Shown one piece after another: positions 32,939-64,000 of a stretch of 64,000 bases of DNA. The stretch's first letter is position 1. Every line of letters begins with the position of its first letter. The stretch comes from Carpediemonas membranifera BICM (taxonomy: Eukaryota > Protista > Fornicata), in assembly GCA_019828565.1 (NCBI GenBank), contig JAHDYR010000015.1:861996-925995 (forward strand), in the 5' to 3' direction. The position numbers and the translations under genes are program-made. The notes under the pieces were generated by a model, which was not told where the DNA came from, did no database searches, and worked only from the letters and a program-made list of their open reading frames with translations.

Positions 32939-35900
32939 CAGTTCACCAATGATTTCAGCAAAGTGGAAACACTTCGATCATGGATGGACAAGGACCAACA
33001 GGCCTGGCCTATATGGATAGGGCAGTGCCCCATGGAGCTCAGAAGGAGCGGCCTTGGCCTCCTGTCTGAACATTCAAGGGTTGCTATCAGGGCATACCGC
33101 TGGGCGCGAGTGGGAGCTCCACGCCCATACCAAGGAATCAAAGTGTCTTCATGGAACGTATGTTTACAAGGAAAAGGAAAACAACCGTCGAGGGCCAGTG
33201 CTAGCACCGGCGGCTACATGGTTTTGTCAAGACCACAAGGAAGGAAGGGCAGCACAAAAGGGAAACAGGGGCCGTCGATAGAGGCTAAAAAGGAGACTAC
33301 GAACAAAGCAACAACAACTACACAGAAAGGCCCCGCTACTCAGAAAAGGGCGACGCATTTTTAGGACCGCGCCTTTTTGAAAGAATGGCCTATATAGTAC
33401 GGAGCATGGACAATGGGAGAAACTGGAAGGCCTGGACGGAGACCTCACCCGGATATGTACATGTGGCCCGACTTTCGGACCCAAAAATTCCGACCCAGTT
33501 TATGGACTAGGAAAAGGGGAGAAATTTTGCACTCAACAATGCAGGTAGAAATACCGACAAGGATCAGGGATTCCACGCAGAAGCAGTGGGAGGACATCAG
33601 GGAACTACTGGACAGCTTCCTCGCTGAAAGGAACGATTCAAGGACTCTACTTCTTCGTAGAACAGGCAAGTTTACAGGAAAGTCGCTCAATGCGAACTCC
33701 AAAGGACGCAAGGCAGTAATCATGAACGCCAGACGCATCCTCTTCGCAACCGGCGTCACTGACAACAAGGACATCATCCTCAGGAACCCATGCGGCATCC
33801 ACGGCCTCCGCGACCTTTTCTACATGCTCACAGAGGCAGACACCGCTTCGGCATCGGCTTCGGGTTCGGGGAGGTTCTGTTGGGCATGAAGGGCATCTTA
33901 CTGCCCCCCCTCACAATCATGGACAACGAAGGTGTACTGGAGAGAAGCCCGCTATGGACCATCATGGAAAGAGCCACGGCTAACCAGCTCCGCATGGTAC
34001 GCGTCAGGAAGGGCCTAGGGGCAGCAAGGGAGGAGGACATCATAACCATGGCCATGCTATACGAGTGGTGGCCCTCGAAGGAGGCTACGGCTCATCAAGG
34101 AGTCTGGGGCTGCGACGACCTAGCAGAGAGCCTCAGGGACTATGAGAAGGTCATAGTCAACGTCAAGGCCCCCCAGGAACAGGGGTAGGATCACCCTAGG
34201 GGCGAGCTTCATCCCGAGAGACTGGGGGCATGGTCAGGGTCAGCGAGGCTGGGACCATCCTAAGCCGCATGCGCAAGGAAGGGGCCAGACTAGTCTCGGC
34301 AGCTATCCCGGACGAGCCCAGAGCCAACACAGTCAATGTCCCAGGCATCACGTATGTCCCCACCATCGACGGAAAGTCCGAACAGCCATACCAAAGTAGG
34401 TTCTTCGACAACGGCCTGGAGGAAAAGGCGAGGCGGATTAGCACCAGGATGGTGGGCAGGCACTTCGGCCAGGACGCGGATCAAGGACATCACGACCAGC
34501 ATGGAGACAGGGAAGAGGACAGAAGGGTAGGACACGGAGCCGGCGGTAGAGCTGGTGTCAGAGCTGACGACAGAACCGGCGACAGAGCTGGTAACATGAA
34601 CAGGACCTCGGATCGTAACCACGGAGGAGACGACAGGGAGAGACAGGACAACACGGGAACGCAGATGAGAGGCTCGTTCAGCGGGAACACCTGGGCCGGT
34701 AGAGGCTCAGAGGGAGGCATGGACAACAGCAAGGATCACTCTTCCTCCACGACGCTCAAGCGCAAGGAGGGCAGCACGAGTAGGATCATGGACTCGGACA
34801 GCGGAAAGAGAAGCAGGCACGAAGAGGACATGGACTGGGAGTCTGGAAGCAGACAGGCAACCGGCATGGACTCGGAGAAGCTGCGGCTCCGAAAGCAGTT
34901 GGCAGAGGCGCAACAAGAGATCTCAGCGCTCAAGTCTGCCCGACTCATGCAAGAGCAAGGCCACGGAAGGTTGGTGCTCTCCGGCGTCGCGACTAAGCCC
35001 AGCAAGGAGAAGCCCACGATCCCCCGGCACAAGCACAAGAAGGCTAAGAAGGCCAAGCAGATCTCACCCATGGACCTGATGACCCAGTTCATCACGGTAA
35101 TGCAGAGTCTACAAGGACAGCAAGTGAGTCAGGCCGAGGACAGCTGCAGCGGCAGTGGGGAGTCCACGGAGGAGGAGTAAGGACATGGTAAAGCAGTATT
35201 CTTTCAAGGAACAAGCAACATTTTCTTTATAATTCACAAGCCCTGGCTCCCACCCAGGGCCCGGCATTAGCTGAAATGCACTGCCGGTAGGCTGTAGCGG
35301 CAGCCAAAGGGGGGGTCACGTCATATCGTCCCCCTCCTAAGTACCCTGCCCGAAGAATGGAAGGTCACCAGGTGGTAACAAGGTTGGCCTGACAAGGGTC
35401 ACCGAGACCGGCATCTAGGCCCCTTGTTAGGACAAGGATAGCAGGAGAGGAGCGGGAAGCTGGGGCTCCCAAATTCTGGGAATTCGCAGGATAAGGAAAC
35501 AGGACAAAGGCAATGGTAACCTACAAGATACTTAGTCTGAACACAGAGGGACACATAGGAAGAGGAAAGGACTTCACGGCGTCTATGGCAACGGCGATTC
35601 AGCTAAGGTTGAAGGACATAGAGGCAGTACTCATACAAGAGACATGGAGAACGGCGAATACGAGGGTTCATTGCTTCATGGACCTTGACTACGCACTAGC
35701 AGGGAGGGAGACGGAAGAGGACCTGGTCTTAGCCAACGAAAAACGAAAGGCGGATGTCAAAAGTCAGCACCGCATCAACCGACAACTAGGCATAGCAGGC
35801 AATGACGAACCTGCGCCAAGATGGAAGGGAACAAGGGAAGGCATCGGCACGATAGTGAGCCCACACGCAACTGCAAAGTGGGACATCGGCATAACGGACA

Positions 35901-38900
35901 GCCTATCGGGAAGAGTGCAAGCCAGCATAATGAGAACCGGCAGGGACATACTAGTCATCAACGTGTATGGCCCTCCATCCGGCCACAGCAAGCAGGAGAA
36001 GGATGGATTCAGGGACACTATACAGAAGATCATGGACATGAAAGGGAGCATGGAGGCCATAATTATGGGAGACTGGAACATCGACCCAGGCCAGATGGAA
36101 AGATCCACCCGGTGGAAGGATATGATGGAGAAGCACAGGCTCAAAGCCATCATACCCAAGTCTGGGACGCTCACATCAGGAACATCAACCCCGGACTTTG
36201 CAGTGACAACACCAGGAATCCAGGGGGCGGAGATTGAGGTGGTAGAGTCTCAGAAGGTCGGGGTATGGGGCTCAGCACACAATGGAATCACACTAGCATG
36301 GAAGGAACAACGGTACTATGGCAGAAGTGAGCGAGACGTGGCTCTGGCCATACCCGAGGTGCACACCTGGCCCATGAAAAGAAGGAGGGGCCAGTCACAG
36401 TCTCAAAGCTGAACAGGATCAAGAGCTCGGACCAATGGGAAGAGACTATAAGAGCATGCATGGGCGACCCAGTGAACAACAGGGGAGCAAAGGCAAGGGA
36501 CAAAGTGTTCGGGAACGGAGTGTGGAGCGAACTCCAGCGAACCCCATGGACAGAAATAGGCAACAGGACCAGGAAGGAAAGGATGAAAGAGGAGCTGGAG
36601 AAATACTGGGGAGAGCGCAGGGCCAAATGGGTGGCCGACATCAGCAGAAGTGCAAAAGGGGGTATAGGGCCTCAAGGGCCTCAGTGGAAGCTGCCATCAG
36701 AAGGTGGTGGTGTGACAACCAATACAAGGGAATGCCGGAGAGCCTCCTCAAGGACGGAGTGATAACCACGGACAAGGCGGCCATCAGCGAGATCCTCTTG
36801 CAACAGTATGCTAGAGTCAGCAGAGGCAGGGAACCCACCTGGAAGACATGGAGGGGCAGGGACGGAAATGAGTTCAAGGAAAGCGAGGTCAAAGCCGCAA
36901 TCAAAAAGGATCAGGAGGGACACCGCACCAGGGCCTGACCTCACATCTGGAGACATGCTGAGAGAGCTGGATGAGAAAGGCCTTAGGGAAGTGACGAGGC
37001 TCATCAACAGGGTCTACAGGGAGGGCGACGTACCCAAAGCATGGAAGTATGCCACAGTGTCGGCCATACACAAGACAGGGAAGCCAAGGGTCAAGCCGGA
37101 ATCATATAGACCAATATCCTTGACACCACTGCTGTACAGGGTCTATGGTAGATTGCTCAAGATACGTCTGGAAGCAGCAACGAAAAGGTTCATACCAAGA
37201 GAACAGGCTGGTTTCCAGTCAGACAGGGACGTCATCCAGCAGATACAGTACATTGTGCAGCGGCACCAGGAGGGGGGTGAGACCACGTCAATCTTTCTGG
37301 ACATCGAGAAGGCATATGACACGGTACCAAGGGACATTCTCATGGATAAGCTACAGGGTATGGGGGTGGAGGAGCACTTGATCAGGGCAATTCAAGGCAC
37401 AATAAAGGAAACCTGGATATCAGTCAAGGGGGCAAAGGCATGGGAAAGAACCAACAGGGGAGTTAAGCAAGGGTGCGTCCTGGCACCGACACTGTTTGTG
37501 CTGTTCATGGCTAACTGGCCCCACCTGGCCAGAAAGAAAATCAAGGGAGAACGGTACGACATCAGAGAACCGCCAAGGACCACGAGCCACCTCAGCGACC
37601 GACTACCGGCAGCACTTACCATGTTTGTGGATGACACTGCGGTCACAGGGAGCAAACCGGAGCATAGCCAGATGGTCGCCAACATAATGGTGGACATAAT
37701 CAGAGAGCATGAAATGAGGGTGAACGCCCAGAAGAATGTAATGATTAGCGTGGACAGAACAGCCCTAGTCAGGATCGAGGGGGTAACACTACTGCCAGAG
37801 AAGGAGGCGAGATACCTGGGATTATGGATCGCAAGTGGGAAGGACCCTATGTCGGCCTGCATAAGGCGGAAACAGGAGCAGAGCGAAAGGTACAAGAGAC
37901 TGGTGAGATGGGCAGGGTGGACCAGGGCAAACATGCCAGCACTAGCGAGCAGGCTACTACTGGAAATATATATATGGCCCAGGATCCTCTTCGGAGTCGA
38001 GGTGTGGGGGAACGCACCGGGAGGTAGAAGGATCTGGAATGACTGGCAGGGAATCATGGCAGGAACAGGACCGGGAGGGGGCGCAGCCATGAGGCTGATG
38101 AATGGATGGGTGGACCTCCAGGCACACATGGAATGGCTGGCAGTCAAAAGGATAGTCAACTACAGGGACCAGGATATACCAGTCAGAAACAGAGAATGGG
38201 GGCGGGGCACGGTTATGTGGGAAGCTAGGGAGAGAGTGCAGCATCTACTGGAGGGCACCAGAGAGGGAGCCCCTAAACCAGCGCTACTGGATTATGGCAT
38301 GGAAACGATCAGGAGGGGGTGGATGAAGCGGTGCAAAAGCCGTACGGCACTAGGACTAATGGAAATCATGGGGACAAGGAAATTAAGCAAGTGTCTGCAA
38401 GGTAAGCCTACGGTAGACCGAAAGGCTGGGAAGGGGCAAAGCAGGGCGGAATGGAAGAGAATTGTATCCATTGCAGCCAATGTCAGCCCATCCCCATCGT
38501 CGGCAGAGAGAGGGGAGGGCCCTATGAGAGCCATCACAGAGCTGGCCCAAGGCGCTGACCTGAAGAGAGAAATTAGCAGACTATGCCCCCTATGCTCGGA
38601 GGAGTCGGAGGTGAGCCTGTTCTACAGGATCATTAGGGAAAAGCCAGGACCAGCAAGGAAGCAGGAAATGATCAGAGAGTGGGCAGAGGGCCAGAGGCTA
38701 GGATCGGCAGCGCACATAATCTGTGAATGCCCGGCAGTAGACAGGGGAGAAGCTTGGACAAAGCTGTGGACAGCAGCGAAGCACAAAACTAAGGACTTGG
38801 AAGTAAGGCAGGGCCCCCAGGGCGAATGGTACCAGGAAAGACCCATCCTAGAATTACAGCAACTAATAATATGGGGCTCGGAGGACATTTGGGAAGGCCT

Positions 38901-39859
38901 CACGGCAGGACTACGGGAACTGGCAAAGGTTTACAACAGCTTCAAGGTGGAATAGAAGCATGTCATGAACCCCTGACTCCAGGACCGGGAAGGGATGGAC
39001 AAGGAATCAGCCATGGACCACCCTCGCTGGTGCTAAGCTCCTGGGATCAGTGAGGAAAGGCCCCACGTATCCCGGTAGCCAGGAACCAAAGCAAGGGAAG
39101 GAACGACTGCAAGGAAAAGAACAGGGAAGGACAGATCAGAAATAAGAAAGAAAAGGACATGCAACAAGGACAGAGCAAGGATAAGGTCAAGGAAATCCAT
39201 ATTCATATGGTTGCACCACTCGTTGGGACCCCAAGGAAACTGCAGGGACTGGCCACGGGGGTCGGAGGGGCACAGGTGCCCCTGCCGCCCTTGTTAACGA
39301 CATGGGAAACCAAGGACATGTAGTGCAAGCGAAATGTTGTAAGGGGTAACAGGACAACCAGGCCTAGTGCCTGGGGCTGCCGCTGACCCACGCCACCTAA
39401 CCGGGGTAGACAGCATGGACTTAGTCACTTTCCCCGCCTTCGGGTAGGCTTCTTAACAGAGTCGAGGGGGCATGGAATTGGGGAACCGGACAGACGAGAG
39501 GGTGCCGTGGCTGAACGGCTCTACAAGGACTGCAGGGAAGCAAGGAGTGTCATAGTCAAGGTTCTGCAGGACGATCCTGCCTGTCAATGCCCCGAGGACA
39601 GACCCCCAGGCTCCCCGGATAGTTGCCGGACTTTCAGGGAGACAGGAAAGCATATTTGCACGGAGATGGCCGCAGGGCCTCTGGGGCGATTGGAATCGGC
39701 TTTCCGCGGAGACAGTAGCACCGAAAGCCCAAGGCAAACGCTGCTGACCAGTTTGCCACGGGAAATAGGCAGTACCCCGGGGCACTCAGCTCCAAGACAA
39801 CGGGAAACAAGCTCAGTCCGGGGTCAGAATCCAAGCACCATAAATTTCTTTCTTCTTTT
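32939..39859 (+). mobile_element. APE-RT LINE family a, truncated within ORF1; 13-bp TSD TCCTGGCTCAGCC
   Basis: TSD at 32926-38 and 39860-72; removal restores gypsy ETVLAQPDPSLPWDVYTDAS; 3' end TAAATTTCTTTCTTCTTT. Confidence 0.92.
35513..38955 (+). pseudogene. LINE-a ORF2 (APE endonuclease, RT, CCHC), frameshifted
   Basis: LIQET, VINVYGP, GDWN, YRPISL, DIEKAYD, GVKQG, FVDD, RYLG and CPLC..HIICEC. Confidence 0.9.
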
Positions 39860-39872
39860 TCCTGGCTCAGCC

Positions 39873-40575
39873 TGATCCCAGCCTGCCATGGGACGTTTAC
39901 ACTGACGCAAGCGACCGGGGGCTTGGGGCCGTAATCACCCAGGGAGAGGGCGCGAATCGCCGCCTGGTCGCCTTCGTTTCGAAATTATTTAACGCGACGC
40001 AGAGGCGCTGGGCCACCTACGACAAGGAGCTGTACGCAATCCTTCATACCCTCACCCGGCCTGACTTGAGTCCTCTACTCAAGATGGTTAACTCGCTCAC
40101 TATCCACACAGACCACCGGAATATTGTGTACCTCATGCGCCGCTCCCTCGTATCCCCCAAGGTGATGCGCTGGCGGATTGCTTTGCAAGAATTCAATTTC
40201 AACATTGCCCACATATCAGGCGAGCATAATGTGGTCGCCGACGCTCTTCTCACGGCTAGAATCGTCGACTAAGACTGTGAACAGTGCCGAGATCGTACCA
40301 TCGGAGGAGGAGAAGCTGCGCATACTTCAAGATCTGCATGAGGGCGCCAATGGCCACCCCAAGGCAGTACGCCTTACGACTCTTGCGATGGAGGCGGGTC
40401 ATGTTTGGCCCGACGTCTCGGCACTCGCCAAGCGGGTAGTCAAGCAGTGCTTGACATGCCAGAAGTTGCGCGCACACAAGCGAACGCCCCCGGCGAAGAA
40501 CAGCACACACCGGTACACGCCCTTTGAATGCGTCCAAGTCGACACTCTCTCCCTGGGGGCTAGCGGTGAGTACAA
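39873..40575 (+). pseudogene. gypsy A RNase H and integrase Zn-binding segment
   Basis: TDAS, TDHRN, RWRIALQEF, H..H..CLTC. Confidence 0.85.
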
Positions 40576-41594
40576 AGAAAGAAAGAAATTTAACGTATCC
40601 TGTACACCTGTGTAAATCAGGGAATTACCAGTTTGCACCACCCCATGTCCCCGGGAACGCCTTAGCGTGTTGACTTCCCTTCGTGAGCGAGCCTGATACT
40701 ACGTTGGGGGCGTTAGCACCATCACCGTCAGGGTCCAGCTGGTAAGGCTGGGTAGTCCCTTGCATGTTGACCTATCAACTGGCTGGCCCGATACCCCCAA
40801 AGTCGGGATAACCCAGGTCTTACTCTTGGGGGTCCTTCGGGCCCCCGTTCTGCCTGGCACCCGCAAGGCCTTGCCCTGCACACCCGCCACCGGGGCCTTC
40901 TGCTCGGTTTTCTCCCTACAGGGCTCCTCTCAGGGGATATGTTCTCCATACCATTCGACCCAGTTTGCAATTTTTCAGGCACCCGCCGAAGCGGTTTCGG
41001 GCTTGGCGTTTGCCGTACCACGCAATTGGGCCAGTTATGAAACCCACCGATCATCGCTGGGTAGCTATATGATTCACGGCTGCGTTCGGGCTCTTCCACA
41101 CTTTCCGTTCCGGCATGGATCCCCTCCTCAAGGATTTGTTCCCTATAGGGCTTCTTCCTAGCTTCCGGCTAGTTCCAAGTTTTGGGTGCCGGGCCGTTCG
41201 GCGCAGCTCTGATTTGGTCCAGGTGCCGCCCAGGTGGTATTGTTGCCTTATGGTTACCCTCCTGTTTGGCTGCTGCGCCCCGATACCTCGCACGTACGTG
41301 TATACATGTGCATACGTGCCCCGCCCTATGGCTCTGGGTTATTTCTTATACGTGTGAAGAGTGTGCCGGTTCTGCCGGCTGAATGTTGTCTACGTTCCCA
41401 GTATGGGTGAGCGTTTGTGTGTTAGCGAGATTAGTGTTCGGGGTTGAGTCCCCCTTCCGCGGCTGGGTGCTACCGGGATACGTGGGGCTTGCGTCCCCCG
41501 CTGATCCCAGGAGCGCTCCGCTTCGGTTGAGGCGGGGGGTTGGGTCCCAGTTTGACCCTGGTCCCAGAGGTCATAGGATTCTGGGATGGTGTAC

Positions 41595-44500
41595 TTACCC
41601 ATCTTTTCGGAGGTTCAGAAGGGCACGTCTGCCGTTCTGCAGTCCATCTCTGACGGTATGGTCCTCGCTGCGGAGGAGCAAGAGCATTTCCAGGATTGCC
41701 CTTGAGTTGTACCACTCCGCCTCCTGCCCTTGCCTTAGGGCGTGGTACTGTGTGCGTAGATGCGCCTCCGCCAGGATGTCATTCCATCCTTCTGGGCGTT
41801 CTACCGCCTTGCATTGGCAGATGATGTGGCTTTGTGTTCCCAGGGGCTGGTTGTATGCCCATTCTGAGAGGATTTTGGTGGTTTCCGCCGCGGTTCTGGT
41901 GACAGTGTACAGGCGAGTAATGGTGTCACCTTCTGAGTCCAGGGTACATAGGGGGCAACACCGCTTGATCCTGCTCAGGAGGGCCTGGGGCTGGCCGATC
42001 GCGCTCCCAAGTATGGCTCTGCTTCTGCCACTGTTGCTGGGGGAGGGGAGTGTGTTGGATGCAGTCATGATTACTCTCTTGACTTCCCGTCTGGTTATCA
42101 TCTCACCCTTGATCATTCCTGGTTTCTTGGGTCTCTTCCCTTGCTGCATGCTGAGGATGACTTCCGGGGCTAGTACTGTTGCCACCCCTTTGGCCGTTCG
42201 GCTCCCGGTGTGCAGTAGTTCTTCTGCTGTGAGGGTCCAGCCTCCCCTCTTTGCTCTTTCCCTGGCGGGCATCTCCTCCTGTGTGCCCTGGAGGACGCTC
42301 CGTCGCCATTGGTAGAGGCGATGTAAGACCGATCCTCTCTCCGCTGTCGCCCAGTCCAGATTCCCTAGGGGGGTCGGACGGTCCGGGTCGTGCGCAGACT
42401 CATAGAGCCTCACCGCTCTCTGCCCCATATCTGCCTCCCAGCACATCCATCCCATTAGTACACGGGCGGCTCCTCCTCCCCCTGGTCCTGTGCCTGCCAT
42501 TAGGCCGCGCCAGTTGTTCCAGATGGCTCTTCCCCTGGCGCTTGGCCCCAGATCTCGATCCCGAACTCGATCTTGGGCCAGAGGAAGGTTCTGAGGATGG
42601 ATTCCGAGGTGGCGGCCGGGGTGGATCCTTTGGTCCACCCTGCTCTCCTGCCAGGGCTAGGTATTTCCGGGATTGTGACATCTTCATTTTGATGCATGCT
42701 GCCAACGGATTCTTCCCGCTGGCTAGCCAGAGTCCCAGATACCTTGCTGAGTCTGACGCCAGTGTGGGAGTTCCTTGGATGCTGACCGCTGCAGTTACGT
42801 CGGTACTTATCACCACATTTTTGCCTGGGCTGGTCTGGAGTCCATGGGCTTCAATTACCCTGACCACTGCGTCTGTGCCTTCTTCGGCGAGCTGCGGGGT
42901 CTCGGCTGAGATGCTTGTATCATCTACAAACATTGCAATGAGGCAGTTTTTGGGCCTATCGTCCGTTGGAGGGAGGCAGGGGTCCGGGATCTCTCTATGC
43001 CGGAGGTACAGTGCCGCCTGGCTTAGCCAGTTAGCTGTGAAGAGAATGAACAGAGTGGGGGCCACCACACATCCTTGCTTGACCCCCATGTTTGTTCTGG
43101 ACCATGTGCTTGCCCCTCGTACCGAGATGTACGTTTCTGTAAGTGTATTTCGGATGGCCCTCGTCAGTCTTGGGTGTACCCCCATGAGCGTCAACTTGTT
43201 CACCAGCAGGTCCCTTGGGACCGTATCATATGCTTTTGCTATGTCAAGTAGGACGCTGGTACGGTTTCCGGACTGGTGGAGTTGGGCTAGGAGGGCTATG
43301 TGATCCACTACAGTTTTCCCTTTCATGAACCCAACTTGCTCTGGGGATGAACTTCTCCACCGTCGGCCTGAGGCGCCATTTCAGTATCCTCCCGTAGGCT
43401 CTGTATAGGAGGGGGGTGAGGGAGATCGGTCTGTACGAGCTGGGCGTGAGCTTGTCCTTCCCAACCTTGTGGATAGGCGACACCGCTGCATACTTCCATG
43501 TGGTTGGCATGGTCCCGCTGTCGTATACTTTCGCGAGCAGGATTGTGATTGCCTCGTACGCTGACTCGGGGAGGTCCCTCAGACAATCTCCAATAATCCC
43601 GTCCGGGCCTCCGGCCGAGGACTTCCTTATGGACTTGACCGCCGCTGTCACTTCTTCAAGCGATGGCGGATGGTCCTCCATGTCCGTTTCCGGCTCGGTT
43701 TCCCAGGTGGGTTCCCAGGTGGGTTCCTTCCCGGAGCTTACCTTCGCGTACTGCTCCTGGAGGGAGTCTGCAATCTCCCTCTGCCTTGCTAGAATCTTGT
43801 TTCCAGCTTTCCTTCAGCATCACCGGGAGACCGGCGTGCTGCTTCTCGTTCCAGAAGCGGAACACTTGGTTTGCGAGGATCCTTTTTGTCGTTTTGTACC
43901 CATCACGGGATCCAACCTCAACCTGCTCATTCCAGTCCTGTTGGAAGGTCCTCCATGATCTGCTCAGTGCTCCGTTGAGGGACTTTTTGATATCTTTGGC
44001 GGCGGTTTTGCTCCAGGTGGAGGTTTTGGCCAGCCGTTCCCATACCTCACTAGGGATACGTTCCTGGTTTTCTACAGCGAATGGGTGCCTTCTGGAGGTA
44101 GCAAACCCGGTGGACAACCATTTCCTTATGAGAGTCTCCATCTCGTCCACTGGTATTTTGCTGTCTAGTGGTGGCCACTCTTCTAGCTTGGGCCCTGTTC
44201 TCCTGGGTTTGACCAGCCACGTATCGATCCGTGGGATTTCCAGTCTCTTTGATATCTCTGGTTTCCCTGTCGGGTTGCTATCCCAGGTGAGCTCTATGGC
44301 TTTGTGTGCCGACCCCCCAGTGCCCGATTGTGGTCTTGTCTATTACCCTAACAACCGGGTTTTGGATACCCCCTGTTACCGCTGCATAGTCTATTGTGGA
44401 CGTTCGGGAGTTAGTCCCGTACGTCGGTGCAGTTGGTGCTATTGGGGTGAGGTTCCATCGCTGGAGGGTCATCGCAGTTGCTTGCCTGAGTTTCCCTGGC

Positions 44501-44967
44501 CTCCTGTTCCAGTCCCCGATGATGATGATGTCACACCCCTCATAGTTCGCGACGGTTTGCTCTAGCATCCGGTCGAACTCCTCAATCTCGGGTCGCGCAC
44601 ATCCACTATCGGGAGCGTAGATATTGATGACTGCCGTGGCCCTCGATGCTTTGAGGATGCTTACTTGGATTCGTGGGTTCGTCCCGTCGGACACGCCTAC
44701 GTCCCATTCCGCTTTGGAGTGCGGGCTAATCAGTGTGGCCAGTCCCTTTGTGGGTCGCTTGCGCGTTGCCTCTAATGGCTTGACCTCTCCTGCACAGGCG
44801 TACTGGAGATCTACCCAGCAAGGGATGGTGGTATTACCGTACCGCTTGGTTTCCTGGAGGAGGATCGCATCAGTCCTTATCCTCTTGCGGATGGATAAAG
44901 CTATGGATCCGCTGTAATCGTTTGCGCCCGCTAGGTGCCCTTCGCTGTTTAGCGATATTATTCTCAT
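41595..44967 (-). pseudogene. LINE-b ORF2 (APE, RT, CCHC), frameshifted
   Basis: LLQET, INIYAP, GDWN, YRPISL, DIAKAYD, FVDD and CPLC..HIICQC; homologous to LINE-a ORF2. Confidence 0.9.
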
Positions 44968-45540
44968 TCAGGTTGTTCTGACATAAACTGCGGGAGTTAC
45001 CCTGCGCGCACTAATCTGCTCTTTGTAGACATTCCCTTTTTGGGCGTACCTTTTGGTGGGTTGCTGAGGCCTCTAACCGAGCAGTCGTTTCCTTTTGGGC
45101 AGGCTTGTGCCTGTATTCCCTTAGTTCCCGGCCTAGGGCATACCATTCCCTTTCACAGTCGGGGCCTCACGATGCTTGTCGGCATTGCTGCCGGTCTCCG
45201 CTTAGCTTCCTTCCTCGCCGCATGGCAGGACCATTACCTAACGAGCTTAGGTGGGAGCGACAGTGGTTGTTGCCCCTCCCAAGGCTGGAGTTACAGCCTG
45301 CCGGACAGGCAGGGCTCTTTTTACCTTTTGGTAACCCTGCCCCCGGCCCTGTGGGGGCACAGGGGTTTGTTGAAAAAGAATGTGTTGCATTTTTTGCTCC
45401 CGCCGGAATGGTTCGCCGGTGTCCATTTGGACTTTAAGGCCCTACTAGTCACAGCCTGGCCATACATGCTGGTTCATATATACACTTTTAGCTCAGACTT
45501 ATATCACACTACCCTCTGCACCTCTTACTTATGATTGTTT

Positions 45541-48500
45541 CTACTCTCCTTCCTTCTCCTCGCCTCTCTTCCTTCTCAGGTCAGACCTGAAGTTATCCAT
45601 CTTGGCTGCTAGGGTGAAGCTGAGGGCTTCGTTGGTTGCCGAGAGTCGGGCCGCGCGGCTGAGTAAGTCCTCGTTCTCTTCGGTTAGAGACGAGCACTTC
45701 TCCGTTGTCTCCCTGAGGTCCTTCCGCATCTCGTCCAACGCAGCTTGGGCTGCTCTCCGGGCTTCCCGTTCTTCCTCCAGCTCCTGGCTTTTTGGCCTTG
45801 AGCTCGTTGATGGTTCTGGCTGCAGCTTCTTCCAGCTGTTGTCTGACCTCTGCTTCTCGCCGGGCCATGGCTTGGTCCAGCAGGGCCGCTATGCCTCTGC
45901 CCAGGTCGGTGTCCTCCTGTCGTGCTCTTTTTGGGCTGCAGGTCCTCTTGGTCCACCTGTCTGACCTGGCGGGTCTTGGCTGATGGGTTGGGGGGTATGG
46001 GGGGGGCACAGCTCTTAGTTGGAGGGGGCCCGGGCTCTGTTCGCTCTGTCCTGCTACTTTGCGGTTGTTCAGTGACAATTTGCCCGCGTGGAGGGCCATA
46101 TAGGCCCCCTATGCCGCCATTCGGCAGGTAGACCTCCGTCCTCCTGTGGAGCATCTTGGCGAGTTCAGTAGCCCTTCGTCTCACCTTTGTTCGAAGCGCC
46201 TGCTTCCTCTCGGTCCTCAGTCTGTTCTTGGCGTTAGTGCTGGCGCCTTCCGGGAAAACACAGTTCAGCGTGTCCCATGGCTTCCCCCTTTTGGGTGTTC
46301 CACGCCTGAGCCCGCCAGGGCGAGTTTGCCTATCCAGGAGGCGCTCCTCAAGGTGCCCACTCGCCTCTTCCCTCTTTCTGCTGGTTCATCCGTGACACCC
46401 CAGTCCCGGGGGAGGAACGAGGGGAGGAAGTTGATGGAGCCTGTCTCCGGGTCGACACACATGTTGGCCAGGAGTTCTCGATCGTCGGCTGGGACCTCCG
46501 TGAAGTAGTTGAAGATCTTCTTCCTGGCTTCTCTGCCCATGTGGCCTCCAGCTATGTCGAATTTGTGGACGGGCATCAAAGACGCCGCTTGGGATAGGGT
46601 CATCGTTTTGGTGTCGCTGACGTCTAGAGTAAGCATCTTTTTCCGCGTCTATTTCCGTGGGCTCCCCCCTCAGGTTCGCCCAAGGGAAACCGTCTTGGAC
46701 AGCGCGGCGGCGCCCGTTCCACTCCGAGTGGATTTCCAGGAGGATGGGTCGCGCTAGTTCGCCTACTCTCGCGAGCGATTCTGGGTTTCCGATGATCACG
46801 GCTGTTCCTTCCAGGGCTCTGGTGATACCCTTTCCGGAGCTGAAATCGTTTTCCTCCCAGTTGGTCATGATAATCTGGCCCCGTTTGGGGTTCTTGGTGC
46901 CAAAGAGGTTGACTTGTTGGGACAATGGGGTTAGGCGACCGGCCGCCACGGTGCCGAGGCCGTGTCTGGCGTTGACTTTGGTCGCCAGGTCCTTGTATTC
47001 ATCATGGTACGGCGACTCCCCTGCCCATGAGCATGCTTCCTAGGGCTGTGAGGTGGGCTTCTACCTGCCCCCAGTCCCAGCCTGGGTTGTCTCTCATCCA
47101 GAACGCTGTTGCTAGTCTGGCGTAGAATATGGAGACATCTGCTAGGGCGCAGTGGCAGTGGTGGGGTGCGTGCTTGTGATAGGGGCACACCAATTTTGCC
47201 TCCGGGCGCTGTTGGTACCTTCTGGTCCAGGTCCGGCCCAGTTCGGACTGGGGTCGGGAGGGGAGGCCGGTGAGGCTCTTCTCCCCACTATTGGGGTAGA
47301 ACCAGGTCAGCGTGTCGAGGATGTTGGGGAAGATCGTGTTGAGGTCCGTTTCATCCATGAGGCGTAAGCTTAGCCAGGTGCGGAGGTTCCCGTCTGGGAC
47401 GAACTTCTCACTGGTCAGGATGCTTCTCTCAGCCTCGACTCCCTTAGCCACGATGTGGACGTGGGTCTTCTGTGGCCCCGAGTCGTCTTCCAGTCTCTTC
47501 AGCTCTGTAGCCATCTCGGTGCACCATCGCTTGGCGTGGGGGAAGTCTGCTTCGTATCCCTTGGGGGCTTTGCCCGTGGTGACGTCGACAAACGTAGCTG
47601 GTGGGCAGCCATGGATGTAGTGCGTGGCCCACAGACATTGGTCCAGGGCATCCACTGTGATGTCTTCCCCAAGCATCCCGTGCATGTAGTAGAGGATTTG
47701 CTCGTTAGCTGGGTCGAAAATCAGTGCCGCCCCTTCGCAAATGATGGCCTCGTCTCCTTGGTTGGATCTGGCTCTTCCTTCCTCAAAGTCCACCATAGCG
47801 ATCAACTGCCTGGTGGTGTTGGCTCGTTGGGTGATATTGGAACGAGGCGGGCTAGCTCCCATGCTGGGCCCGCATGTGCCCTTGTTTGGCGTGGTGGGTG
47901 TGTCATCAGGGCCGGAAGTCCTGCTGCCGCTCGGGCCCAGGGGGTTTCTTCTTCGTTAGTACCCAGGGCTCCATGAGATGCCCCATCCCGTACGGGCTCT
48001 ATAACTTGGGTCTGCCCCGTTGTGAGCCAGTAGTTAGTGATGTTGCGCGTCAGAAAGGAGGCAGACACCAGTTCGCGGGCAATCCTCGCGGGTGGGGGCC
48101 AGAGACGCCTGGTCTTATCCCATGCCGACCAGAGTTCGGGGAAGCCGGGGACTGACCACCGTTGGATGAGGTCTCTGACCTCCTCCCTCAGGTCTGCCTC
48201 TGCTGCCGAAGGCTCTTCTTCCAGGGGTGGGGGTGGGAAGACTGGCCTCATCACACCATCGGTTCTGCTGTAGATGAGGATCTCCTCGACGGGGCCCTGG
48301 GTCCAGATCTGGATGGGCGTGCCGTCTGGTCTGCGGGAAACCTCCCTCCGGGGGGTGAGGGGCGTGGTAGCCTTGCCCTTTGGCTAGTTCCCGGCCTAGG
48401 TCGGCCCAGAGCTTCTTGTTTTCGCGTCCTAGTGAGGGGAGCCCTCTGGCTGCAGCTCCCGCGGAGATGGCGTGTCCGGCGGCATGGAGGAGCCACATTG

Positions 48501-49625
48501 CAGCCTCCATCCCGTACTTGGTCTGGATGCCGTTGCCTGAGATCGAAGAATGTCCTGCAGCTTGCAGCGATGTTGCCACGAGCTCTAGGAGGAGCGTCCT
48601 TGCGACCTTTCCCGTTCGGGCAGTGAAGTCCGTTGCGTCATCTCTGGTGAAGACCATGGCAACGTCCCTTGTGGGAATAGCCGCATCTGCTGAGGCTCTG
48701 ATGCAGTCCCATTCGTCCGGTGTGGCCAGTTGCTTGCCCAGTGGCGTTAACGACTCCTTGATCCCATTTGGGGTGGTGTTTGCGCAATCCAAGGCGTCTG
48801 GGACGCTTTGGGAGCTGTTCGAGGTCATTGTGTGGCGTGGTCTCGAAAAGTCCCGGTTATGGATTCGGCCGAGATCAAGGCCCTCCTCCACGGGGAGAAG
48901 TGATGGGGTGTGTTGCTCACTAGCTGGTGCCGTCTGGCTCGTCCGGTGGGGATGTGCTACGTACTTGGAGTAGTCCGCCTGGACTCTGGGGGTAGAACAC
49001 AAATTTGGGGGACCCTGGGCGAAGCCGGCTTAGTGTCTCCGCCTGCTCTAGGTCCAGCCGGTTCCCTTCAATGAATAGCCAGTATGGCTGTTGGGCGGCT
49101 TTTGTGTACCGTCTCAGGAGGGGAAGTGATGCAAACAGCTTCTTGGCCCGGCTTTTCCGGAGCTCCCCTGGGCCTTCCTTTGCTGTAAAGCTTCCCTGTT
49201 CTGGGTCTACAATCTTGTCGTATCCTATCGCGTTGCCGAGCTGGATAATGGACGTATTTGCTTTTTCCCCTCTGGTTTTCCTGAGATCCCTTCTGGGTGC
49301 AGCCTTAAGGGCGAATAAGCCATAAATCATGCTTTCTTCCCTATCTGGCATGTCCCTGTTGGGATATTCCCCTGTTTCCATTTGGAGTGGCAAAAGGCGG
49401 GAAGTGCACTTTTGCCAGCTTCTTGGAGGGGCTTGAGGAGGTTTGGTGGAGGTTCCAAGGGGCGCCAGCCAGCGATGTCCTGGTCTTGTATGGCTCCTTT
49501 CCCTTCCTCAGGGCGGATGGTTCAGGGGCGAGGTATGCGAGGTTTGTTGCGGACCTTGTTTCCACACAAAACATGTCTGGCGAAAACCCAAAAGGGAACC
49601 TTATTGCAGGGACAGGGAGCATCAC
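45541..49625 (-). pseudogene. LINE-b large ORF1 (about 1350 codons if frameshifts are corrected)
   Basis: Chain of overlapping minus-strand ORFs. Shares LR.(Y/W)...QQ.(Y/W).(L/I)(F/W)I and SF(L/I)PRDWG blocks with LINE-a ORF1; C-terminal coiled coil. Confidence 0.65.
47002..47862 (-). CDS. DEDDh-type 3'-5' exonuclease domain with E-C-H-C Zn site (Maelstrom/arenavirus-NP-like) within LINE ORF1
   Basis: MVDFEEG..IICEG..THYIHG..IVAKGVEAERSIL..CPYH..HCALADVSIF. Confidence 0.7.
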   Translation of the reverse strand: MGASPPRSNITQRANTTRQLIAMVDFEEGRARSNQGDEAIICEGAALIFDPANEQILYYMHGMLGEDITVDALDQCLWATHYIHGCPPATFVDVTTGKAPKGYEADFPHAKRWCTEMATELKRLEDDSGPQKTHVHIVAKGVEAERSILTSEKFVPDGNLRTWLSLRLMDETDLNTIFPNILDTLTWFYPNSGEKSLTGLPSRPQSELGRTWTRRYQQRPEAKLVCPYHKHAPHHCHCALADVSIFYARLATAFWMRDNPGWDWGQVEAHLTALGSMLMGRGVAVP

Positions 49626-51348
49626 CCCACACGGGGCTGCTGTCCCTTATTCCCCATGCGTCCGTTCCATCTCTCCTTCCACCTTCACGCCTCCTCCTGG
49701 CCATTCGGCCGGCGCCTCCGCTGCCCAGCGGTCCCCAGAGGGGGAGGTGCATTACCAGGGGTTATGCACTCCGATCCCTATCGAGTCCTTGGCCCGAGTA
49801 CGGCCTGGACTCCGATTTCGGGGGCGCCGCCTCTTTCCCCGGGAAGCAGGGCCCTCTTCGCACTCCGACGGGGGATCCCATATTCCCCTCCGGGCCCCAG
49901 GGTAGTCCCTTGCCTTGTGGCGGCAGGGGCTTCACCGCTCCTTCTCGGGAGTCCCCGACTCCTGGCCCGGCGACTCCTCGGGGTTGGGAGGCGCATTTCC
50001 TGCGGACCATAGCTGACGATTTTGCCCAGGTGGACGTCCTGGCCAGCCGGTGGCGGGAGCGTGCCGCTGCTTTTTCCTACCTGGCTCAGAATTACCGTGA
50101 CGAGGACCTGAGTCCCCACGAGTCTAAGTCGGCTCGGGGTTTCGACGCTGAGCTGAGGGGCCAAATGCGGGTCTATAAGCGCCTTCGTGCTCGCATAGAC
50201 GCCCGGCTGCACCAGCTGGTTGCCATTCACGCCCCTCGTCCTGTATCTTGTGGTCGCAGCCCGGTTGTTTCCTTCCTGGGTCGCGTCACTCCCAAGAGGT
50301 TGTGAGTCCTGGTAAACACCGTGATGGTTTATGCCTTTTGGCTTCGGCTGGGCGTTTCTTGTGGGGCTGTGGACGGGGCCCTCAGCGCTCCCGGTCTGTT
50401 GTCCGGTATGGCTGGTGTACTGGGGGCCTGTTGTGGTGGCCCTGTTGCCTATGCCGGCGGCGGGCGGCGATCCCGGCTCTCGTGGCGATGACGTCCACAA
50501 GCCCGGTCTTGGGCGGCATGAGAGCACGGGCGCCGGAGTAGTGTGGCCCAGTGGCCTCCCAGTGAGAGCCTATTGGCCGCCGGTCCCGGTGCTCTCGGGT
50601 TACTTTTGCCATATGGCCCCAGTTAAGTTGTCTGAGGCAATCGTGTCGCAGTGCCTCTGGGGCCTACTGCGGGTACCGGTTACGGTAGGGGTTTCAATCA
50701 TAAAGGTGGCGCAGTACGCTTGTTCGCGTTGATTTCCCTTGTGGGTTTGTGCGAGGAGCGTTTAGTTGCGTCTGGTCCCCTTGTGGGTCCCAGGAGCATG
50801 GGCGGTAGGTTTTGTTTGTTGTTAGAGTACTGTGTATTCTGTCAACGCTTTCCTACCGAGGCTAACTTATTCCCTTTTGGGTGGTTTTTGCCTCTGTGCA
50901 TTTTTTGGGCACACGAGGACGATCATCTGTTGCTCGACATAGCTTGGCGCACGGCGAGGTATACAGGGCAGGGGAGTGGGCTCCAGGTGAGGTGCGCACC
51001 ACCTCACCTGGAGCAGCCAGTTGTCCTCTGCCGGCCCGCTCTGGCGCTAACCTGCTTCGCAACGGGCGATCTCCTCCGGGGAGCAATTTGCTTCCCCAAT
51101 GTGCCCTATGGCTAGTGGGTTAGGAGAATACTTCCCATTTCTGCTCTCGTGCCCCAGAGCAGACGAACTCTTGGTCCTGAAATTACCATTTGGTGGATGC
51201 TGGCGCCGCGGGGCACCGTCGCTCGCTTCGAGCTCGAATGGCTTTCAATGAGATCCGATAAATCCCGATTGCCAGCTTTTGGCCTTTTTCCGGTTGGTTT
51301 CGTCAACTTCCCATACCGGACATTTCAACTGGCTAGCGGTGAGTACAA

Positions 51349-52405
51349 GGGCGTCTTGGTCTTCACAGATGTCTTCACGAAATACGTGGTACTGAAGCCG
51401 GTGAGATCAACCACGGCCGCCGAGACAGCCCAAGCAATGCTAGAAGTCTGGGCCCTATTTGGGAAACCAGCGCTACTTCAAACTGATGGCGGACCGGAAT
51501 TTAGGAACCAAGTGGACGCTGAAGTCAACCGGATCCTCTCCCTCAAGCATCGTTACTCGACCCCACATCACCCAGCCTCCAACGGAATTGTTGAACGCAC
51601 GAATGGAAAAGTCCTTCGTCTGTTGCGGGGTTTACTATTTGACAACCAGGACTATGACTGGGTTCCTTTCCTCCCTTTAGTGCAGTACATCATTAATACA
51701 CGGCCAACACGGGCCACGGGGCAAGCCCCCTTACGCCTAGTGACAGGCAATTCGGGATCCGACTCCGAGCAGTTTTCAGTCGCGCAATACGAGCGGGCGT
51801 GGGCCCTATTTAAGGAAATGTCGGCGGGCCAAGCCGATTGCCTGAAGGCGTTCCGCGACGCCCTTAATACCCGCCGTCTGCAAGCCAAGGCTCATCTCCA
51901 ACGGTATAGCGAACGAAACAAGAGCGGCGAGGACAGCGACACACCTCCGAGCTTCCCGGATGGCTCCTTCGCACTCCTCCGCTACGTTGGCAGAGCTCCC
52001 AAGCTGCTCACCAGCCTCCGGGGCCCGATGAAGGTTGTACGAGCCGGCGAATCGCCCGCTACGCACGTGGTTCGCGACTTAGTGTCGCTGGCAGAGGTCC
52101 TGGTCAGCGATGAGCGACTCATTCCTGTCGAGACGCCAGAGGACGAGCAAGCCCTGATCGCTAGACTTGCCGCCGAGTGCGGTGAGTACGTGGTCGACAA
52201 TGTCTACAAGCACAGGGTCTCAAACAAGGGGTCCAAGGTCGAATTCAAAGTCCACTGGCTGGGCTACGAGCCGAGCGAAGACTCTTGGATTAGTTTTACC
52301 AGAGAAACCGACCAGCTGGAGGCCCTAGACCAATATTTGCGCGAGAACCCTGCACTAGAGCCGACTCTGGCTCGTATTCGTCGCAGGTGGCGGGCCCGGT
52401 CCTAG
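51349..52405 (+). pseudogene. gypsy A integrase core plus chromodomain
   Basis: TDGGPEF, SNGIVER, GPMKV and YVVDNVYKHR..FKVHWLGYEPSEDSW. Confidence 0.9.
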
Positions 52406-52996: not shown

Positions 52997-53104
52997 TGTC
53001 GCAATACCGTATTAATATTTATATATTTTATGGGTGTCGTCTTGGTCCTACTTGGTCCGAGACGACACCAGTGTGTCGAAATAAATTAGCGCATCGTTAC
53101 AACA
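52997..53104 (+). repeat. 3' LTR of gypsy A
   Basis: Identical to 30461-30568; preceded by PPT. Confidence 0.93.
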
Positions 53105-61000: not shown

Positions 61001-64000
61001 ATGTGCCTGAGGAGGTCCTTGCCGATCAGCATCCTGTCGCTGGTGCCTGTGATCATGTGGACGTCCCAGTCGAGCGTGACGGTTTTGCCATCCATGCCAG
61101 GGAGTGTGATGGACATGGTGAAAGAAGAAAGAAATTTATGGTGCTTGGATTCTGACCCCGGACTGAGCTTGTTTCCCGTTGTCTTGGAGCTGAGTGCCCC
61201 GGGGTACTGCCTATTTCCCGTGGCAAACTGGTCAGCAGCGTTTGCCTTGGGCTTTCGGTGCTACTGTCTCCGCGGAAAGCCGATTCCAATCGCCCCAGAG
61301 GCCCTGCGGCCATCTCCGTGCAAATATGCTTTCCTGTCTCCCTGAAAGTCCGGCAACTATCCGGGGAGCCTGGGGGTCTGTCCTCGGGGCATTGACAGGC
61401 ATGATCGTCCTGCAGAACCTTGACTATGACACTCCTTGCTTCCCTGCAGTCCTTGTAGAGCCGTTCAGCCACGGCACCCTCTCGTCTGTCCGGTTCCCCA
61501 ATTCCATGCCCCCTCGACTCTGTTAAGAAGCCTACCCGAAGGCGGGGGAAAGTGACTAAGTCCATGCTGTCTACCCCGGTAAGGTGGCGTGGGTCAGGGC
61601 ATGGGTGGTGTACCCCCAGGCACTAGGCCTGGTTGTCCTGTTACCCCTTACAACATTTCGCTTGCACTACATGTCCTTGGTTTCCCATGTCGTTAACAAG
61701 GGCGGCAGGGGCACCTGTGCCCCTCCGACCCCCGTGGCCAGTCCCTGCAGTTTCCTTGGGGTCCCAACGAGTGGTGCAACCATATGAATATGGATTTCCT
61801 TGACCTTATCCTTGCTCTGTCCTTGTTGCATGTCCTTTCTTTCTTATTTCTGGTCTGTCCTTCCTGTTATTTCCTTGCAGTCGTTCCTTCCCTTGCTTTG
61901 GTTCCTGGCTACCGGGATACGTGGGGCCTTTCCTCACTGATCCCAGGAGCTTAGCACCAGCGAGGGTGGTCCATGGCTGATTCCTTGTCCATCCCTTCCC
62001 GGTCCTGGAGTCAGGGGTTCATGACATGCTTCTATTCCACCTTGAAGCTGTTGTAAACCTTTGCCAGTTCCCGTAGTCCTGCCGTGAGGCCTTCCCAAAT
62101 GTCCTCCGAGCCCCATATTATTAGTTGCTGTAATTCTAGGATGGGTCTTTCCTGGTACCATTCGCCCTGGGGGCCCTGCCTTACTTCCAAGTCCTTAGTT
62201 TTGTGCTTCGCTGCTGTCCACAGCTTTGTCCAAGCTTCTCCCCTGTCTACTGCCGGGCATTCACAGATTATGTGCGCTGCCGATCCTAGCCTCTGGCCCT
62301 CTGCCCACTCCCTGATCATTTCCTGCTTCCTTGCTGGTCCTGGCTTTTTCCCTAATGATCCTGTAGAACAGGCTCACCTCCGACTCCTCCGAGCATAGGG
62401 GGCATAGTCTGCTAATTTCTCTCTTCAGGTCAGCGCCTTGGGCCAGCTCTGTGATGGCTCTCATAGGGCCCTCCCTCTCTCTGCCGACGATGGGGATGGG
62501 CTGACATTGGCTGCAATGGATACAATTCTCTTCCATTCCGCCCTGCTTTTGCCCCTTCCCAGCCTTTCGGTCTACCGTAGGCTTACCTTGCAGACACTTG
62601 CTTAATTTCCTTGTCCCCATGATTTCCATTAGTCCTAGTGCCGTACGGCTTTTGCACCGCTTCATCCACCCCCTCCTGATCGTTTCCATGCCATAATCCA
62701 GTAGCGCTGGTTTAGGGGCTCCCTCTCTGGTGCCCTCCAGTAGATGCTGCACTCTCTCCCTAGCTTCCCACATAACCGTGCCCCGCCCCCATTCTCTGTT
62801 TCTGACTGGTATATCCTGGTCCCTGTAGTTGACTATCCTTTTTGACTGCCAGCCATTCCATGTGTGCCTGGAGGTCCACCCATCCATTCATCAGCCTCAT
62901 GGCTGCGCCCCCTCCCGGTCCTGTTCCTGCCATGATTCCCTGCCAGTCATTCCAGATCCTTCTACCTCCCGGTGCGTTCCCCCACACCTCGACTCCGAAG
63001 AGGATCCTGGGCCATATATATATTTCCAGTAGTAGCCTGCTCGCTAGTGCTGGCATGTTTGCCCTGGTCCACCCTGCCCATCTCACCAGTCTCTTGTACC
63101 TTTCGCTCTGCTCCTGTTTCCGCCTTATGCAGGCCGACATAGGGTCCTTCCCACTTGCGATCCATAATCCCAGGTATCTCGCCTCCTTCTCTGGCAGTAG
63201 TGTTACCCCCTCGATCCTGACTAGGGCTGTTCTGTCCACGCTAATCATTACATTCTTCTGGGCGTTCACCCTCATTTCATGCTCTCTGATTATGTCCACC
63301 ATTATGTTGGCGACCGTGATGGACATGGTGGCGATCTTGCCCACGGAGATAACGCGGTCGTCCGCGGCGAACAGGCGGAGGTCCGACTCGCGCCATTGGA
63401 TGTTTCCTGGTATCTTTGGGGCGAGGTGCTCGGATATGACGCAGACATCTGCGCCAGTGTCGAGCTTGGCTGGAAGTTGGACGGTTCCGGCGACCGTTAC
63501 GGTTGTCTGTATGGGAATGGAGGTCGTTTGGACCTCGCCGACGGCGCCATCGCGTTGGTTCGCTCCGCAGTCCTTGGTTGCATGCTTTGAGTTCCAGCCA
63601 TGCCTGTCACACCAGCGATTGAAAGACTTCGGGATGTAGAAATGCTCCTTGTCCTTAAACTGCTTGAACGGGTCCTGGCCTTCGACCTTGTGGGCCTTCG
63701 GCTTCAGCGGCTGGCCCTCGCGAGCAGAGGTGTCCTTGTTCGAGCACTGACTGTTATCATGCGGTGCCTTATTGTCGGCCGGGATCGGCTTCGTCTTGGT
63801 CGACACGGCATAGGCCTGCCAGGGGACGACGATCTGGCCGAGATGGTCGGTCTCGAGGGTCGAGAGGGCGTCTATGCAGTCGCGGGCGGGACGCCAGTTG
63901 CCGTCCGAATCCCGCTCGATCAGCGCCTCGTATAGCGGGATCGCGTCGTCGTCGTATCCCCTTTGAGGGCGACAGATCGGACCGCAGCGCGGAGGGCGCT
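58020..64000 (-). mobile_element. Ty3/gypsy chromovirus C (5' end beyond the window)
   Basis: PR LDTGA, RT YVDD, RH TDAS, IN TDQG and chromodomain VSAIVGHR..LVHWEG. PPT 58069-79; candidate 3' LTR 58020-58068. Confidence 0.9.
61121..63315 (-). mobile_element. 5'-truncated LINE-a copy; 15-bp TSD GTGATGGACATGGTG
   Basis: Near-identical to 37674-39859; TSD at 61106-20 and 63316-30 within the gypsy C protease. Confidence 0.95.

Follow-up and report, generated by a model that had tools for sequence, protein, structure and literature searches.

We analysed a 64,000-nucleotide window (the whole stretch considered here, in whose positions all coordinates are given) of contig JAHDYR010000015.1 from Carpediemonas membranifera BICM (GCA_019828565.1, forward-strand positions 861,996 to 925,995). 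The window holds a full-length non-LTR (non-long terminal repeat) retrotransposon of the apurinic/apyrimidinic endonuclease–reverse transcriptase (APE-RT) type, a long interspersed nuclear element termed LINE-b, whose first open reading frame (ORF1) includes a predicted zinc-binding DEDDh exonuclease domain. This APE-LINE ORF1 appears to be a carrier of a probable exonuclease of the type found in Maelstrom and arenavirus nucleoprotein (NP). LINE-b comprises the following features.

48828..45544, minus strand: ORF1 of LINE-b, about 1,100 codons in eight pieces with seven frame breaks, traced with a codon model and a profile of relatives
48750..47970, minus strand: N-terminal region of ORF1 followed by a low-complexity linker, 39–40% identical to residues 75–321 of the relative P0004
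47811..47101, minus strand: predicted Maelstrom-like DEDDh exonuclease domain (D16, E18, E136, H228, D233) with ECHC zinc residues (E34, C217, H220, C229)
47039..46319, minus strand: conserved post-nuclease region of ORF1, ending in the motif F-(I/L)-P-R-(D/E)-W-G
45888..45544, minus strand: predicted C-terminal coiled coil of ORF1 (several weak coiled-coil Pfam matches, all below cut-off)
44967..41595, minus strand: ORF2, with APE endonuclease, reverse transcriptase and C-terminal region, frame-broken
48829..51330, minus strand: 5′ region of LINE-b, 2.5 kb, coding-model scores mostly negative
40576..51330, minus strand: LINE-b, full-length APE-RT non-LTR retrotransposon, 10,755 bp, with an 18-bp target-site duplication and a CTTT-repeat tail
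40558..40575, plus strand: target-site duplication, left copy, inside a gypsy-type integrase frame
51331..51348, plus strand: target-site duplication, right copy, from which the integrase core and chromodomain run on

With ten coding stretches from outside the ORF1 region as its training set, a codon model tracked the frames of eight successive ORF1 pieces from about 48810 to 45570, downstream of a start ATG at 48828, and a profile built from ten related proteins (described below) matched four of these pieces in order (independent E value (iE) ≤ 0.00023). One relative, P0004, runs from the N-terminal region into the nuclease domain within one protein, matching three successive LINE-b pieces (48750–48337, 48326–47970 and 47811–47581). 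Past the nuclease, profile matches were found at 46603–46391 (iE 0.0034) and 46501–46319 (iE 1.8e-5), with 47039–46650 weakly aligned (iE 0.78), and the C-termini of the relatives gave the same weak coiled-coil signal. Pfam scans of the window pieces, the ten relatives, P0012 and P0014 detected no RRM, CCHC, PHD or esterase domain, although very divergent RRMs could escape such scans; an HMG box was likewise not found in the window pieces and relatives. Judging from the relatives, ORF1 would be a single protein in an intact copy, the present one being frame-broken. The breaks, which are spread over ORF2 too, are probably sequence errors, because two LINE-a copies (LINE-a is a sister element in the same window) compared over 2,199 columns differ by 8 substitutions, one 10-base insertion or deletion and 8 single-base insertions or deletions, all 8 of which fall in base runs; decay could also have produced them. 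Homopolymer runs lie at 7/7 break zones in ORF1 and 2/5 in ORF2, a count that is weak alone against a background of 17 runs per kb.

The element itself has the hallmarks of an APE-LINE: APE and RT domains in ORF2 (Pfam PF03372, E 1.8e-6 at 44967–44281, and PF00078, E 8.1e-23 at 43380–42403), a target-site duplication and a simple-repeat 3′ tail. The 18-bp direct repeat at 40558 and 51331 bounds LINE-b and splits a gypsy-type integrase, leaving the zinc-binding part on the left and the core and chromodomain on the right. Both halves read the repeat in the same phase, and the left frame (40229–40615), in which an integrase zinc domain is present, translates it as ASGEYK. LINE-b shares the 5′ end CAGTT with LINE-a, and self-comparison found no terminal repeats. 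All three LINE tails in the window (39845–39859, 40576–40595 and 61121–61140) consist of AAATTT and then CTTT repeats, without poly(A). LINE-a and LINE-b also have in common a 46-bp block of the 3′ untranslated region (39037–39079 with 41514–41469, 85%). The LINE-b 5′ region (48829–51330) gave no Pfam match and no clear coding signal, and an Rfam scan of 40000–52000 returned 0 matches. This region is 2.5 kb long, versus about 0.5 kb in LINE-a, and includes a 195-codon sense frame (49507–48920) and a 328-codon antisense frame (49319–50305), neither with a Pfam match; the gap between ORF1 and ORF2 is about 570 bp (44970–45540), versus about 330 bp in LINE-a.

Motifs, relatives and predicted fold of the nuclease domain

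All of the motifs listed in a preliminary description of this DNA lie, in the order stated there, in one open minus-strand frame (47955–47002 from stop to stop, 317 codons). In the numbering of the domain sequence P0001, in which residue 1 is at 47835, they read D16-F-E18, E34, H52-G53, H75-G76, K131-G-V-E-A-E136-R-S-I-L, C217-P-Y-H220 and H228-C229-A-L-A-D233 (D16 at 47790, E18 at 47784, E34 at 47736, E136 at 47430, C217 at 47187, H220 at 47178, H228 at 47154, C229 at 47151 and D233 at 47139). D16 and E18 are the residues D25 and E27 when counted from an in-frame ATG at 47862, and the domain comprises about 235 amino acids. Sequence searches with the single domain (Pfam, two word-indexed protein searches and PDB sequences, the latter also with profiles A1 and A2) found nothing, and the case was therefore built from relatives and structure.

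A HMMER search of 1.84 billion proteins returned ten matches at E ≤ 0.001 (E 2.6e-28 to 4.9e-8), 5/10 of which are hypothetical proteins of C. membranifera. P0012 and P0013 were added as cluster members, and an alignment search of longer proteins found four, one of them new (P0014); known relatives were missed by this search, which is thus not exhaustive. Five relatives of 1,129–1,250 amino acids (P0003, P0005, P0008, P0010 and P0014) hold the domain centrally. All were found with the nuclease as query, and they appear to be ORF1-family proteins because P0004 matches the LINE-b pieces and P0002 and P0012 match LINE-a ORF1 at 37–53%. An exact look-up of 10 window ORFs in the protein collection gave 0/10 hits. 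A metagenome locus (L001, the 1 locus from 32 pattern matches) was rejected as chance, the match being 26 amino acids in a bacterial-looking ORF.

In a 12-row alignment that included the query, with P0006 and P0013 dropped as near-duplicates, 24 of the 228 scored columns were invariant. Eight of the nine catalytic and zinc residues are among them, in relatives at 27–56% identity: E18 and E34 are kept in 11/11 covering rows and E136, C217, H220, H228, C229 and D233 each in 9/9, with D16 in 10/11. Together with the E values of the ten relatives, this places the resemblance beyond chance. D16 and E18 (the ExoI motif, D-x-E) lie within predicted strand 9–21, and the ExoIII pair H228/D233 (H-x4-D) has the same spacing as H528/D533 of Lassa NP, in which D389, E391 and D466 are the other catalytic residues (PMC3429428). 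The ExoII candidate, E136, is a Glu placed by alignment only, in predicted helix 133–140 after strand 124–130. E34 is in predicted strand 31–41; this is strand 2, the strand that holds the ligand E137 in Bombyx Maelstrom, whose other zinc ligands are C290, H293 and C302 and which has D122 and the dead positions N124 and R306 (PMC4408791). The spacing of C217-H220-C229-D233 (C-x2-H-x8-C-x3-D; 3 from C to H, 9 from H to C and 4 from C to the last catalytic position) equals that of Bombyx C290-H293-C302-R306, and D16 and E34 are 18 residues apart versus 15 in Bombyx Maelstrom. H52, in 10/11 rows, and H75, in 4/10 covering rows of alignment A2, are candidates for the two further His of the MAEL EHHCHC set. 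A zinc site is predicted, as the preliminary description had proposed, and the domain looks like the double-motif state of active Entamoeba MAEL and arenavirus NP because the ECHC spacing and the D-x-E / H-x4-D patterns both agree.

An AlphaFold2 model built from the 11-row alignment A2 without templates reached a pLDDT (predicted local distance difference test) of 78.7 and a pTM (predicted template modelling score) of 0.78; a single-sequence fold with pLDDT 37.6 was set aside. The model runs through three N-terminal strands, helices, strand 4, a helix, strand 5 and C-terminal helices, a predicted RNase H-like DnaQ/DEDDh fold. A Foldseek search of the PDB gave 55 matches at E ≤ 0.001 and, among the matches listed, all 39 were DEDDh-fold chains (DnaQ, RNase T, ERI1, oligoribonuclease, Maelstrom and kin). 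Compared with 48,161 solved chains, the model matched three Maelstrom chains best (Z 13.4, 12.9 and 12.8; root-mean-square deviation (rmsd) 3.5–3.8 over 185–192 residues) at 10–12% identity. NP of Lassa virus and of lymphocytic choriomeningitis virus (LCMV) reached Z 9.4 over 150–152 aligned residues at identities of 21% and 17%; the Lassa value (3r3l, rmsd 3.4 over 150 residues) is the highest identity among the best 50 matches. Of the two likenesses first suggested, Maelstrom is thus the closer match by modelled structure and zinc-ligand spacing, and arenavirus NP is closer in percent identity only. Wherever a test gave a clear answer, it placed the domain among the DEDDh folds, and MAEL-domain membership is likely.

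The Atlas model of P0012 matched RNase_T-family clusters with template modelling scores of 0.55–0.63, and an Atlas feature match to arenavirus NP (0.88) is a lead only. The top ESM Atlas feature matches of P0001 were unnamed clusters (0.93, 0.91 and 0.91), two of them mostly eukaryotic and commonest in arthropods, which could be further transposon-borne nucleases of the same type. BFVD yielded phage and giant-virus DEDDh proteins, with no named arenavirus among the 50 matches listed.

Descent of the domain, LINE-a and the rest of the window

The preliminary description took the nuclease for a captured, accessory module, pointing to the shorter ORF1 of the sister element.

32939..39859, plus strand: LINE-a, full-length sister element with an ORF1 that lacks the nuclease domain, 6,921 bp, 13-bp duplication
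33838..33844, plus strand: junction in LINE-a ORF1, about 590 P0002 codons missing, with a frame change
61121..63315: 5′-truncated LINE-a copy with a 15-bp duplication and a CTTT-repeat tail

LINE-a is indeed shorter across this interval. Its ORF1 aligns back to back with P0002 residues 18–123 (33521–33838) and 716–823 (33844–34170), so that about 590 codons (1.8 kb) are missing, including the nuclease (P0002 415–635) and parts of both neighbouring regions. That LINE-a shares the flanking blocks of LINE-b holds downstream, through the relatives (iE 0.0034), and was not detected upstream; direct comparison of the two ORF1s gave only one credible match, of 15 amino acids (E 0.003). Kinship of the LINE-b N-terminal region with the other groups is not established, because a profile of six N-terminal regions without P0004 matched LINE-a and not LINE-b.

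Neither descriptor of the module was borne out. The nuclease domain is common to four divergent ORF1 groups, and the groups in its tree mirror those of the flanking regions. In the unrooted nuclease tree (12 rows, without P0006 and P0013), LINE-b joins P0004 (97/96), P0005 joins P0007 (98/97) and P0008, P0010 and P0014 form a group (100/100), with P0002, P0011 and P0012 grouping weakly with long-branched P0009 (80/85). LINE-a groups with the domain-bearing P0002 and P0012 in the post-nuclease tree (10 rows, 99/100) and with P0002 in the N-terminal tree (9 rows, 92/92), both also unrooted. We therefore rejected recent capture by LINE-b, since LINE-a groups with domain-bearing relatives and its gap cuts into both neighbouring regions. 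Loss of the nuclease in LINE-a is the plain reading of these sequences, as a gain would need the root to lie on LINE-a's short branch. The gap has a sharp junction with a frame change; the codons may have been deleted, spliced out as an intron or lost through a fault in the assembly. The LINE-a RT matched solved L1 (E 8e-16) and R2 (E 1e-14) enzymes about equally.

Each of the three LINE insertions (32926–39872, 40558–51348 and 61106–63330) sits within a gypsy-type pol gene. LINE-a and LINE-b share one gypsy element, in its RT/RNase H region and integrase, respectively, and the truncated copy is found between pol pieces of a second one, a placement that may reflect target preference or a transposon-dense region. 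Several gypsy-type elements occupy 51116–52405, 53086–56166, 58097–60535 and 62760–63998, two of them with an integrase chromodomain, and short blocks of 100% identity pair 30461 with 52997 (108 bp) and 30232 with 57253 (76 bp), which suggests that element ends are nested here. Positions 1–29400 hold host-like long frames (PCI, Sds3-like, two kinases, RCC1, LRR, Torus/RRM/CCCH and SacI), including a 983-amino-acid frame at 26377–29328 with no Pfam match above cut-off. An inverted duplicate (77%) joins 17437–18502 and 21462–22385.

Proposed function of the ORF1 nuclease

From its conserved residues and modelled fold, the domain is probably an active two-metal 3′–5′ exonuclease, and it likely acts on RNA. 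We propose, tentatively and by analogy, that it serves as a counter-silencing RNase that removes silencing-trigger RNA. The ORF1 protein would pack LINE RNA, as other ORF1 proteins do; the nuclease would hold two Mg or Mn ions on D16, E18, E136 and D233, use H228 as base and cut RNA from the 3′ end; and its targets would be RNAs close to that of the element (double-stranded, antisense or small), whose destruction would blunt host silencing of the LINE. This role is favoured because of the analogy with arenavirus NP, an RNA-packaging protein with such a nuclease. Both DEDD and ECHC residues are present in Entamoeba MAEL, which degrades single-stranded RNA with Mg or Mn (PMC4408791), and in Lassa NP, which digests double-stranded RNA (PMC3429428); a virus-derived helicase in insect LINEs, proposed to be a silencing suppressor, offers a precedent (PMC5563155).

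Several observations pull the other way. Where the second catalytic Asp is expected there is a Glu, assigned by alignment only, and residue 420 of P0002, at the D16 position, is a Tyr, marking either a dead copy or a sequence error. Pfam Maelstrom and Arena_ncap_C matched 0/11 alignment members at E ≤ 10, with HMMER filters that drop weak matches. Maelstrom ranked only 11th in Foldseek, and arenavirus NP was absent among the PDB matches listed; in the comparison with solved chains, the DinG nuclease domain ties with the third Maelstrom chain (Z 12.8), and generic or DNA-acting DEDDh enzymes follow closely (3′hExo and RNase T at 12.2, level with ESRP1, and DnaQ at 11.8). The LINE origin of the relatives rests on similarity to the LINE-a and LINE-b ORF1s. 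LINE-a inserted with intact ends though it lacks the domain; mobilisation in trans, or deletion of the domain at a later time, may account for this. Finally, none of the papers listed by a literature search on RNA interference genes in Carpediemonas names it, and a host Argonaute or Dicer is a presumption of the proposal.

ORF1 proteins act on their own RNA, and the domain might instead be an active RNase that shortens the element's transcript at its 3′ end as far as the CTTT-repeat tail, which serves to initiate reverse transcription. The shared tail of all three window copies (3/3) fits this role, which has also been proposed for the DEDDy domains of Terminons (PMC6431247). LINE-a, however, has the same tail yet lacks the domain. 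Many LINE clades, moreover, end in short repeats without such an enzyme, and we consider trimming unlikely. Less probable still is a chiefly RNA-binding function of the domain within the particle, as in animal Maelstrom, with any cutting incidental. The chains that its model matches best are animal MAEL domains, which are inactive and bind single-stranded RNA, and the ten relatives showed neither an RRM nor a zinc knuckle nor any other domain for RNA binding, so the nuclease fold could supply that function; yet E18, E136, H228 and D233 are invariant and D16 nearly so, whereas animal Maelstrom has lost its catalytic residues. The domain might also be a DNA exonuclease, cleaning up 3′ DNA ends or flaps when the element integrates. 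We regard this as similarly improbable, despite the proximity of DinG, DnaQ, RNase T and TREX1 (Z 12.8–11.2) and the proposal of such a role for the nucleases of KolobokD and Dada (PMC9587614, PMC3706591). In both known cases, the proteins with an ECHC site act on RNA, and an enzyme degrading DNA from the 3′ end could destroy the primer and complementary DNA of the element itself. In LINEs, DNA steps belong to ORF2.

A separate gene or a nested insertion outside ORF1 is a very improbable reading of the segment. The segment has its own frame in this copy, with the in-frame ATG at 47862, and the gene models of P0006 and P0012 start just ahead of the domain; P0004, which joins the domain to the upstream pieces, is itself a predicted gene model that could hide joins. 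Against this, the five long relatives hold the domain centrally in one protein. Nothing marks a nested insertion, because the segment is flanked by no more than one 11-bp direct match, lacks inverted repeats of 10 bp and is like the rest of LINE-b in base composition, and frame breaks also run across ORF2. We accordingly rejected an insertion confined to this copy, which the preliminary description had named, beside the lack of an RNase H-like DEDD fold, as an outcome that would overturn its claim; the fold is predicted and ten relatives carry the domain.

Comparison with known systems and significance

The ECHC site has been described for Maelstrom and arenavirus NP (PMC7968707, PMC2628886, PMC3985635). 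With animal Maelstrom and Entamoeba EHI_192630 the LINE-b domain shares, as modelled, a DnaQ-like fold, with the best Z, the ECHC residues and the C-x2-H-x8-C spacing of Bombyx, and as in the active amoeba protein its DEDD-type residues are kept. It differs from both in being transposon-encoded, without an HMG box or a Pfam Maelstrom match, and in the Glu at the second catalytic Asp position, and its identity to the solved MAEL chains is 10–12%; animal Maelstrom, in contrast, is a host gene, employed by animals against transposons, with an HMG box that has lost the catalytic residues the LINE-b domain keeps. Arenavirus NP (Lassa, LCMV) resembles it in combining DEDDh and ECHC residues, in H-x4-D spacing and in fusion to a likely RNA-packaging protein. 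Its Z is lower and its aligned residues fewer than for Maelstrom, its nuclease is C-terminal whereas that of LINE-b is central, and Pfam scans of the LINE-b upstream pieces and relatives found no NP core domain.

Other transposons carry nucleases of the wider superfamily. In rotifers, LTR and Penelope-like elements encode DEDDy nucleases (PMC5408684, PMC6431247, PMC5718144); among these elements, Juno/Vesta and Athena/Terminon likewise bear a retroelement DEDD nuclease, with a DEED variant, and a Cys-His-Cys motif has been noted in Vesta2 and Vesta5 (PMC5408684). These rotifer proteins are RNase D-like and encoded in a separate ORF3 of LTR or Penelope-like elements, whereas LINE-b has a DEDDh domain inside an APE-LINE ORF1. 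The DnaQ-like nucleases of KolobokD (DEDDh) and Dada (DEDDy) are also transposon-borne (PMC9587614, PMC3706591), but in DNA transposons; they resemble TREX/ERI1/Exuperantia or are DEDDy, and no ECHC site is reported in the parts of these papers available. LINE ORF1 types feature RRM, CCHC, PHD and esterase domains (PMC4120745). Like types I–V, LINE-b has an ORF1 with a coiled coil (here predicted) upstream of APE-RT, and the esterase type also places an enzyme in ORF1; unlike types I–IV, it has no detected RRM, CCHC, PHD or esterase. A count in the main text of that paper gave 0 words beginning with 'nuclease' or 'exonuclease'. In the literature searched, no LINE was described as having a DEDD nuclease and no transposon as having a MAEL-type domain; an existing annotation, for instance in Repbase, Dfam or supplementary files, may have been missed.

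This ORF1 would add a new type to LINEs and give a third home to a rare zinc-bound DEDDh nuclease seen so far in Maelstrom and arenavirus NP (PMC7968707, PMC4408791). One possible, if doubtful, synthesis is a protist LINE family whose ORF1 resembles arenavirus NP in joining RNA packaging to an active Maelstrom-type exonuclease directed against silencing RNAs; a host anti-transposon lineage would here have been turned to counter-defence, as a third ECHC-DEDDh branch possibly linking the other two. The finding bears on the origin of the domain in Maelstrom and arenavirus NP and on LINE-encoded counter-defence against RNA silencing, and both questions are directly testable because the domain is compact, its catalytic residues are clear and LINE-a is a natural deletion relative.

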